In this document: positions 759 through 3,700 of the stretch, in pieces
How the letters are laid out: each line of letters begins with the position of its first letter
Position numbering within the stretch: the first letter of the stretch is position 1
IMG/VR virus record: IMGVR_UViG_2617270948_000002
Location: 1-32,175 of that record
DNA: 32,175 nt
From: a virus
Taxonomy: Duplodnaviria; Heunggongvirae; Uroviricota; Caudoviricetes
Reading direction: 5' to 3' (one strand)
Position numbers: made by a program

Positions 759-3700
759 TGACCACTACAGTGTTTTTGGCAGCCAAGAACAGGGAGTCTC
801 TGTTTGTCTGGCGGCTAAAGGTGATATGGAAATCGTGATGTCTTGGCCTAAAGTAGTTGCAACAGTTGGAGCGATTATGGTGGTAGTAGTGATCATCGCA
901 CCACCCATTTGCAAGGGTTGACGACATTATTTATCCGGCGCTATATTCTGTGCGTTGCCGCAAAATCGGCACACGGGATTGGCGTCCCGGAATACTACTC
1001 AACGCATACCGCGTTAAGCGGTTTTTTTATGCGCTAAGCACGGCTACGCCCAAATTATGGTGGGCTGTGTGAGGGCTTCTTCGGGAGCGCCGGGTTTGAG
1101 TAGCCGGTTACGCCAACCTTGCACAGTTCACCACCAGTCGATTGGCGTCGTTGGTGGTGATGGTTAACCTGATGAGGTGATACTATGACTACTCAATTAG
1201 CATTCCACAAAACGACGTTTACCCCAATTTGCCACAATAACAGAATTTGGCTTACTGCCACTGAAGTTGGTTTAGCTCTGGAATATGCGGACGATAAAGC
1301 AGTTCAGCGCATTTACTCTCGTCACTCAGATGAATTTACAGATATGATGACAAGGGTGGTCAAAGTGACCACCCCTCGTGGAATGCAGGAGTCTCGAGTA
1401 TTTAGCCTTCGCGGAGCCCATTTGATCGCCATGTTTGCACGAACTCCTGTAGCCAAAGAGTTCCGCCGCTGGGTTCTGGATATTCTCGATCGAGAAGTTC
1501 AACAATCCCCGATCACAAAACAATTCACTGATAACGAACTTTGCACACTCGCCTGGTTATGGCGAGCAAGTGATACGATGTTAATCGCCTGCCAGAACGT
1601 TACTCCACTTCTTCAGGTTGCGGAGCACCGCGAAGCCGGTCGCTTTACTTCTATCAGTCAGGAATATCCCCTGATACTCAGCAAGGCGCGAGCAATCCTT
1701 GCCAGAGAAACGGCGCATGTAAAATTCCAACCGTGGCAGGATGATAAGTGGAGCAGGGTATTGCCACATTTGCGTCAGGCTAGATTGCAATAGTTTTACA
1801 TATTAGGCGCTGAATGGATGCAAGCAGGTAGCGCACTGGGCGGCAATGATTAAGGCTTCAGATAAGCCAAGTAAGCACTGAAGAAGTTCAATGTAATCAA
1901 ATTCTCTTTATGGTATTTTCGTTAGACCCCTCATGCACTTAGATGGAAATTTGAAATGATGTATTCAGTGACTTTCGATGATACTGGACGAGTAGAAGAT
2001 ATTGAACTAGATCGTGAGGTTAGAGCCGGAGATAGACTCTCGCTTAATATTGATGGTCTTGATGGTATTTATATAGTCATGACTGTTAGCGGCCCTATCT
2101 ATGAAAATGTTTGTATGCCAATGAATATCCGGGTTCAAAAGTATTGGAAGCAATGATGTATAATCCCCTCAGATGCTCGAGGGGATTTTTATGTCAGACT
2201 GGAACATTGCAGCAAAACCGCAAAAGGAACGTGACAAGGTAAGCGTTGGCCTTGCGCTTTCAGGTGTAGCGTATAAAGAACGCCCGAACATGCCGGTTAT
2301 AGCTAAACAGGTAGCTAGAGAACAACTTGGGCATCTCCGCGAGTACTTAATGGATCGCGTCCGTTATTACCGTAAGCAGAGCATCACCTTCCAAAAGCAT
2401 CCGAACCACGCTACATAGAAATGGCAGACTTAAATGCAAGAAAATGAAAAGCAAGAGCAGCATGAAACTGAACCTCAGGATTTAGATTTTCCAGCAGAAT
2501 TTGACTCTCTGATTAATGCAAATGGAAAGATAACACCTGCATTGCTAACGGTAGTTAACCGGTATTTTTTATATTTTTCATTCTTTGAATCACTTCTTTT
2601 GGGGTGTTCTGGAAGTCAGGGGAAGAGTTCGAAATACGCAGCGAAATTGTTGGAATTCAAATTAGTTGATCTTGACGTTCTTAAGCGAACATACTTCTTT
2701 TTTGCAGACCGTTATCTGGCAGATGTAGTGAAGTTTGAAAACCTATGTGGTGATTTAGAGCATACATCGCAGAAGGCTAGGGATGAAAAAATTAAGGCCA
2801 TGCAATTAAAGACAAACGACCCTGAAATTCAGTTAGGTGTTTGTATTTTTGTTTGTTTCAGGTTGCGAAACAACCTTTTTCATGGACCAAAATGGCGTTA
2901 TTTGCTTGATGGGCAAGAGGATTTGCTCTTAATTGCCGGAAATTTTATACATTCTATTCTATTACAGGTGCCTAGTAGAGATGGCTGGGAATTCAAGAAT
3001 ATTTTAACTTCTACTGATTAGCTTTGATTTTCCATAATCAACCCGCCATAATCATGTCATCGGAGCCTGAACAACTCCGGTGACTTCTGCGCTTTGAGGG
3101 GACTCAAAGTGCAAACGACAATCAGAACACCTTTCAACCAGTCACAGATGCAGAAATGCACCTGCGATATCTTGCATCCAACGTTTGACCTCTGCGGAGG
3201 TGAAGCGTGAACCTCCCACAAGATGGCATCAAATTGCATCGCGGTAACTTCACCGCTATCGGTCAGCAGATCCAGCCTTATCTGGAAGACGGCAAATGCT
3301 TTCGCATGGTGCTTAAACCGTGGCGAGAGAGACGCAGTCTTTCCCAGAATGCACTCAGCCACATGTGGTACAGCGAAATCAGTGAATACCTCATCAGCAG
3401 GGGGAAATCGTTCGCTACCGCAGCATGGGTAAAAGATGCTCTCAAACACACATACCTCGGTTATGAAACCAAGGACCTGGTTGATGTCGTAACCGGCGAA
3501 ATCACTACTATCCAGTCATTACGCCATACCTCCGATCTTGATACCGGAGAGATGTATGTCTTCCTGTGTAAGGTTGAAGCATGGGCGATGAATATTGGCT
3601 GCCACCTGACTATTCCGCAGAGCTGCGAGTTCCAGCTGCTGCGCGACAAGCAGGAGGCGTAATGGCTACACCGCTTATTCGTGTCATGAACGGACACATC

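Follow-up and report, generated by a model that had tools for sequence, protein, structure and literature searches.

The p195 locus

We analysed a 32,175-nucleotide (nt) stretch of DNA from a virus of the Caudoviricetes (IMG/VR record IMGVR_UViG_2617270948_000002, positions 1 to 32,175; hereafter the window), and in it a gene, here called p195, that lies between a phage antirepressor gene and a ninB/ybcN-like gene (Table 1). A previous inspection of the DNA (the sequence-only reading) had described three open reading frames (ORFs) at this place as an AT-rich accessory cassette, had recognised none of the three products, and had proposed that the largest, of 195 amino acids (aa), is a HEPN-like RNase of a toxin/immunity or anti-phage module. 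The three ORFs were found as described in position and charge, and all lie on the plus strand. All three are real genes and not chance ORFs: p195 because related proteins with an invariant motif form ~40 close clusters and hundreds of distant ones, and orf66 because its product matches phrog_38858 at E 2e-49. The motif singled out earlier, CFRLRNNLFHG, occupies residues 141–151 of p195, with R145 and H150 encoded at nt 2866–2883.

The low GC content ascribed to the cassette was borne out in part. The three-ORF segment is AT-rich (GC 0.399, against 0.498 for the whole window), but the dip is uneven, being limited to orf66 and p195 with the middle gene at the phage average, and the flanking genes have a GC content of 0.48–0.51 rather than the 0.50–0.55 given earlier. 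Windows of equal size reach the value of the segment or lower in 13% of cases, because the window also contains a gtr/acyltransferase region with a GC content of 0.28–0.33.

Table 1 Features of the p195 locus (positions in the window; pI, isoelectric point)
Feature	Position	Strand	Description
Antirepressor gene	1185–1793	+	Bro-N (PF02498) and P22AR C-terminal (PF10548) domains (Pfam)
orf66	1956–2156	+	66 aa, acidic, pI 4.5, GC 0.383
Conserved pre-theta element	2159–2190	+	TATAAT (2159–2164), 9-bp hairpin (2162–2187), T-run
theta homologue	2191–2418	+	75 aa from second ATG, basic, pI 10.1, GC 0.487
p195	2434–3021	+	195 aa, GC 0.369; candidate HEPN-like RNase/defence effector (from sequence and model)
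E52 codon	2587–2589	+	only conserved acidic residue; candidate counterpart of the HEPN upstream acidic residue
R93-Y94 codons	2710–2715	+	further conserved residues of the putative site
Putative catalytic Rx4H block	2860–2895	+	R143-L-R145-N146-N147-L-F-H150-G151-P-K153-W154 (320-sequence counts, model)
Conserved segment upstream of ninB	3022–3206	+	promoter-like site at 3024–3052 (promoter scan)
ninB/ybcN-like gene	3207–3662	+	right context gene; PF05772 at E 1.4e-4, just under the cut-off

p195 belongs to a broad family with an invariant motif

Close relatives of p195 (55–99% identity) were found only in prophages of Enterobacteriaceae, and the gene is rare in E. coli, with 5 occurrences in 5,426 complete genomes. 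An exhaustive phmmer scan gave 147 representatives at the 50% identity level and a profile search gave 408 family proteins, which are typically ~165 aa long and, in the case of the distant members, ~20–30% identical to p195. Genomes with the family come from the alpha-, beta- and gamma-proteobacteria, Desulfobacterota, Bacteroidota, Planctomycetota, Cyanobacteria, Acidobacteriota and Nitrospirota, and relatives are also carried by rhizobial conjugative plasmids; the genome collections yielded 80 loci and the viral collections 44 (individual loci are given below as L numbers). The 120 profile-search matches listed are all without a Pfam domain and without an informative name. Comparison of p195 and 71 relatives with Pfam, NCBIfam, PADLOC and PHROGs returned no more than phrog_27260 and phrog_19013, two families of unknown function, apart from scattered single weak matches to PADLOC-DB v2 among the 71 members (none for p195 itself). 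A literature search found no paper on the family.

R145, N147, G151 and K153 are present in all 320 distinct family sequences, H150, E52 and R93 in 319, Q161 in 318, Y94 in 316 and R143 in 313. Position 146, directly after R145, is N in 316 sequences, H in 3 and C in 1. The pair R145 and H150, whose conservation among homologues the sequence-only reading had made a test of its proposal, is also invariant in the family alignments A1 and A3.

The p195-family protein is always a stand-alone domain; apparent fusions, seen as ORFs of 215–424 aa in some loci, were rejected as start-codon over-extensions in GC-rich DNA. The enterobacterial subfamily has a Q/E-rich N-terminal tail (2434–2484 in the window) of variable length and low model confidence, which the wider family lacks, and the homologue in L110 (5887–6540) contains ~30 glutamines in a row. 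In L002 (E. coli 2018-05-2CC), an IS3 element has truncated the p195 gene by its first 63 codons.

A candidate HEPN-type active site

The HEPN fold is a four-helix up-down bundle made of two alpha-hairpins, with an insert between helices 2 and 3. Its Rx4-6H motif lies where the end of helix 3 runs into the loop before helix 4, the residue right after the Arg is polar (N, D or H), and there is usually an upstream acidic residue, typically within Ex3[K/R] in helix 2 (PMC3710099). An AlphaFold model of p195 built on 143 sequences (predicted local distance difference test score, pLDDT, 87.8; predicted template modelling score, pTM, 0.85) is all-alpha. In this model a helix spanning residues 130–149 ends at the Rx4H motif and is followed by a loop or short turn (150–160) and a last helix (161–177). 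The spacing of the Arg and His, the Asn after the Arg and the predicted position of the motif relative to the helix are thus those of the HEPN superfamily (PMC3710099; 1WWP, HEPN-T; 1JOG, HI0074; 7AE2, HepT). The conserved E52 may correspond to the upstream acidic residue, but it lies in the first long helix (35–56) and is followed by S/A-x-x-L rather than by the usual K/R.

Judging from this conservation and the model, the set E52...R93-Y94...R143-x-R145-N-N-x-F-H150-G-x-K153-W...Q161 most likely forms a HEPN-type metal-independent endoribonuclease centre. Within the coding sequence, a terminator-like hairpin at 2860–2876 overlaps the R143–F149 codons and is probably a by-product of the coding sequence.

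Family members lie in phage cargo slots and defence islands

No neighbour is conserved across the 104 non-redundant p195-family loci; the commonest neighbour cluster, a phage nin gene, occurs in 13 of them. A conserved ATPase partner was looked for and not found. No MNT nucleotidyltransferase or other gene is conserved beside the family, which sets p195 apart from the HepT/MntA type VII toxin–antitoxin system. In phages, family genes occupy three cargo slots, namely the theta–ninB junction, the interval between Q and the holin gene (a homologue of 31% identity), and a place beside DUF551 and integrase genes (a homologue of 35% identity).

For the non-viral members, one upstream and one downstream ORF at each of 73 non-redundant loci, 139 ORFs in all, were scanned for defence genes. 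Neighbours matched at E values from 0 to 1e-209 were BrxC/PglY, type I and type IIG restriction enzymes, a class II prokaryotic Argonaute (pAgo), GajA, GajB and PDC-S06. Further neighbours were Ppl (three), AriA-like ATPases (five), PbeA, TIR effectors, ZorD and six T5orf172/MUG113 nucleases. On these uncontrolled counts, the chromosomal setting of the family is a defence-island signature. The examination of gene neighbourhoods that had been suggested at the outset thus placed the family beside genes of BREX, Gabija, pAgo, restriction-modification, PD-T7-1 and Lit, and such defence and mobile-element contexts are shared with HEPN families of the AbiA, AbiV, AbiU2 and ApeA type.

The PD-T7-1 (E 1e-85) and Lit/peptidase U49 (E 7e-16) genes form part of a four-gene block that recurs in unrelated proteobacteria. 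They are joined in it by a T5orf172/GIY-YIG gene, whose product has a Zn ribbon, and by a p195-like gene. The latter comes last and shares 4 nt at its start with the T5orf172 gene, so that these two may constitute a two-gene system. The block was found in Aureimonas, Hydrogenophaga, Ectopseudomonas, Luteibacter, Nitratireductor, Pseudomonas, Hoeflea and on an Agrobacterium vitis plasmid (L049, L051, L059, L081, L083, L084, L093 and L096, ~2.8–6.5 kb each, and L148, 1–5288); on the A. vitis plasmid, genes for a TrlF-family ATPase and a TauD dioxygenase lie ahead of PD-T7-1 and Lit. The window, in contrast, has no PD-T7-1, Lit or T5orf172, and p195 in the E. coli prophage stands alone behind theta. 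In L012–L014 (1–4498), a distant relative of p195 is found among short, unrelated genes on the same strand, an arrangement like that of an integron cassette array; the other genes of the run encode BglII-like, CxxCxxCC, DUF6804, TPR, Ada Zn-binding and PLD proteins.

p195 is separable from its two small neighbours

The product of the middle gene is identified by sequence as a full-length homologue of the DNA polymerase III (Pol III) theta subunit, like E. coli HolE and phage P1 Hot. It matches PF06440 at E 7e-25 (86.9 bits against a gathering cut-off of 34.6; profile positions 2–69 of 70 covered), phrog_1105 and NF008207, and is 63.5% identical to P1 Hot. Its ORF, read mechanically, begins at 2173, and the length in Table 1 is counted from the ATG at 2191. 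The statement that none of the three proteins could be recognised consequently holds for p195 and orf66, and not for theta.

The orf66 product belongs to phrog_38858, a family of unknown function, and gave zero matches among 50,697 phage records. The gene is present only in six related loci (L001, L003, L102, L108, L112 and L117), in five of which it is accompanied by the antirepressor gene, and is linked to the latter rather than to p195. The antirepressor, named 'P22AR C-terminal domain-containing protein' by the Prokaryotic Genome Annotation Pipeline (PGAP) in the E. coli LR-50 locus described below, is itself a left context gene outside the p195 unit.

Small adjacent genes on one strand invite the idea of a toxin/immunity cassette, in which p195 would be a toxin neutralised by the theta homologue or by orf66. 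In 25 fetched loci the gene immediately preceding the p195-family gene is theta, some of these loci belonging to a subfamily with just 26–32% identity to p195, and the two ORFs overlap in some relatives. However, the middle protein is a bona fide theta/Hot homologue with counterparts in 34 sequenced phages that all lack p195, and in at least 8 of the 25 theta-linked loci theta is frameshifted or truncated next to an intact p195. Furthermore, p195 loci of the Citrobacter/Salmonella type have no theta, and theta is absent beside nearly all non-enteric members. Together, the phages with theta and no p195 and the loci with p195 and no theta speak against p195 depending functionally on theta. With orf66 confined to six loci, five of which have the antirepressor gene, we reject the three-gene toxin/immunity module of the sequence-only reading and regard a pairing of p195 with either neighbour as highly improbable.

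The recurrent adjacency of theta and p195, their probable translational coupling and the position of p195 in a replication-proximal early region could also mean that p195 and the theta homologue act jointly on the host replisome, for instance through modulation of the Pol III epsilon–theta sub-assembly in phage replication. Against this, the family is common in alpha- and beta-proteobacteria, Bacteroidota, Cyanobacteria and further groups, from which theta (HolE) is, to our knowledge, absent. In these groups the p195-family genes lie in defence islands, not near replication genes. In phage HK639, moreover, theta is found at the same place without p195, suggesting that the two genes share an insertion hot spot. 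We give this role very little credence; like the toxin/immunity cassette, it is poorly supported.

A mosaic segment with an insertion hot spot

E. coli LR-50 carries a 99.7% identical copy of the segment in a lambdoid prophage, where it is flanked by replication genes and the antirepressor gene to one side and by ybcN-ninE-ybcO-rusA-ylcG-Q to the other. From ~nt 3023, just past the p195 stop codon, the sequence is again homologous to many lambdoid phages and more than 2,500 E. coli genomes, and the right-hand limit of the insertion is marked by the conserved 180-bp segment in front of ninB. For phage 82, the annotation of the equivalent segment lists putative -35/-10 signals, a regulator-binding repeat and orf33. 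The ninB/ybcN-like gene that follows the segment is called 'DNA base-flipping protein YbcN' by PGAP in L001. HK639 has theta followed by the same ninB-upstream segment, with no p195 between them. A second mosaic joint was located within theta, at ~2283–2303. The segment is therefore a mosaic of five parts (antirepressor gene with orf66, hairpin, theta homologue, p195, and conserved ninB-upstream segment), of which p195 alone is the unrecognised cargo. We take the theta–ninB junction to be a hot spot for insertion, perhaps with the genes translationally coupled, and not the site of a toxin–antitoxin pair.

Two regions elsewhere in the window were also noted. An IS3-family transposase orfB-like ORF occupies the left edge (9–761), where LR-50 instead carries replication genes together with a 1.4-kb hypothetical gene. 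At the opposite end of the prophage, 26102–31926 on the minus strand (the low-GC region mentioned above) carries gtrA (yfdG), gtrB (yfdH), a gtrII glucosyltransferase gene, an acyltransferase gene and an ISSfl9 transposase gene, and is an O-antigen modification (serotype-conversion) module.

A proposed role for p195 as a solo anti-phage RNase

A precedent for a prophage-borne nuclease without a partner is HepS (STM14_3211) of the Salmonella prophage Gifsy-1, a solo HEPN abortive-infection anticodon nuclease (Sargen et al., Nature 2026, PMC13043305; PDB 9OIJ/9OIK) with the motif R100-N-x3-H105. HepS is made constitutively as an inactive tetramer, is activated by the tail-tip protein J and then cleaves tRNA anticodon loops (PMC13043305). 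Like HepS, p195 is a single small protein with an R-N-x3-H motif, occupies an accessory slot near an antirepressor gene in the early-right region of a lambdoid prophage, has no conserved partner or inhibitor, and belongs to a family that extends beyond enteric bacteria. In sequence and structure, p195 showed no detectable homology to HepS (PDB 9OIJ). GiPD474, a single-gene defence of Gifsy, was also considered as a relative of p195 and ruled out because it is an ATPase-domain protein.

By this analogy, and from the conserved residues and the model, we favour the interpretation that p195 is a single-gene anti-phage RNase of the solo, HEPN-like abortive-infection type, with a probability of roughly 0.55. 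p195, perhaps assembled as a dimer or tetramer, would be carried as prophage cargo and kept silent or inactive in the lysogen. A product of an infecting phage would then switch it on, the activated enzyme would cut tRNA or other RNA, and this cleavage would abort the infection.

Two sets of observations weigh against this interpretation. The first concerns descent. None of the Pfam HEPN models matched the 71 members even at E ≤ 10, and hhalign comparison, in local and global modes, of alignment A3 with alignment A4, built from the pEK499 'HEPN family nuclease' and representing one HEPN family (PF18736), gave a probability of 0.35%. The hhalign result carries little weight, since the PF18736 profile itself, used as a control, finds no solved HEPN structure. 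A Foldseek search of the PDB with the p195 model gave no match, and sequence searches of the PDB, whether by the protein itself, by the full profile or by a profile of the motif alone, found nothing meaningful. The fold may be new and the motif convergent. p195 and its relatives could form a new all-alpha fold unrelated to HEPN, in which R-x4-H arose convergently or serves to bind a ligand or nucleic acid, with a defence role still possible; we consider this improbable. The profile and structure searches proposed in the sequence-only reading thus matched no known non-nuclease family and yielded an all-alpha model, but no HEPN match. They leave the HEPN-like RNase lead strengthened by conservation and helix placement and unproven by profile or fold, and HEPN membership of p195, towards which we lean, plausible rather than established. 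On a more tentative view, p195 would found a phylum-spanning family of single-protein effectors with no relative of solved fold, either a divergent HEPN branch or a convergent site, with a chemistry and trigger of its own, lodged in the theta-linked hot spot and held at low translation by sequestration in a hairpin.

The second set concerns expression. The hairpin of the pre-theta element, scored terminator-like in a scan, has the arms AATCCCCTC and GAGGGGATT and an 8-nt loop. The Shine-Dalgarno sequence of theta, GAGGGG (2179–2184), sits in the 3' arm, and the element ends 1 nt ahead of the theta ATG. The stem is kept in six loci (the window, L007, L105, L106, L113 and L114), with loops that differ, unrelated upstream DNA and a single G.U change in L113. 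The element could be a terminator, a stem that sequesters the ribosome-binding site and represses translation, or a module-boundary sequence. No obvious promoter or Shine-Dalgarno sequence of its own was seen for p195. Given the hairpin and these missing signals, production of p195 may be confined to lytic growth, which would favour a benefit to the phage.

In that case p195 might aid lytic growth as a host-takeover or counter-defence enzyme, one that cuts host RNA or degrades an immune signal and is expressed from the early operon by antitermination. Its place inside the early-right (nin) unit behind a terminator-like hairpin fits such a role, as do the overlapping ORFs of several relatives, in which p195 appears translationally coupled to theta, and the late-transcribed position of the homologue between Q and the holin gene. 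However, most members of the family are chromosomal or plasmid-borne, outside phages and directly beside defence genes, and HepS, in a comparable early-region slot, is nevertheless expressed constitutively. A function in lytic growth is on these grounds unlikely, and expression of an inactive p195 in the lysogen, as supposed for the anti-phage RNase, would resemble that of HepS.

Implications

HEPN defences carried by prophages are already familiar; the p195 family is broad, unannotated and readily testable, and its invariant 12-residue block offers immediate targets for mutagenesis. If p195 is an active solo RNase, a widespread unannotated family would join the single-gene abortive-infection systems, and p195 would be the second partner-less HEPN-type nuclease of lambdoid prophages that protects the host, unrelated in sequence to HepS. 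If it is not a HEPN protein, the interest would be greater still, since the family would then represent a new fold that is found in defence islands and has a defined candidate active site. The theta–ninB site itself appears as a recurrent cargo hot spot of enteric lambdoid phages that can be mined for further systems.

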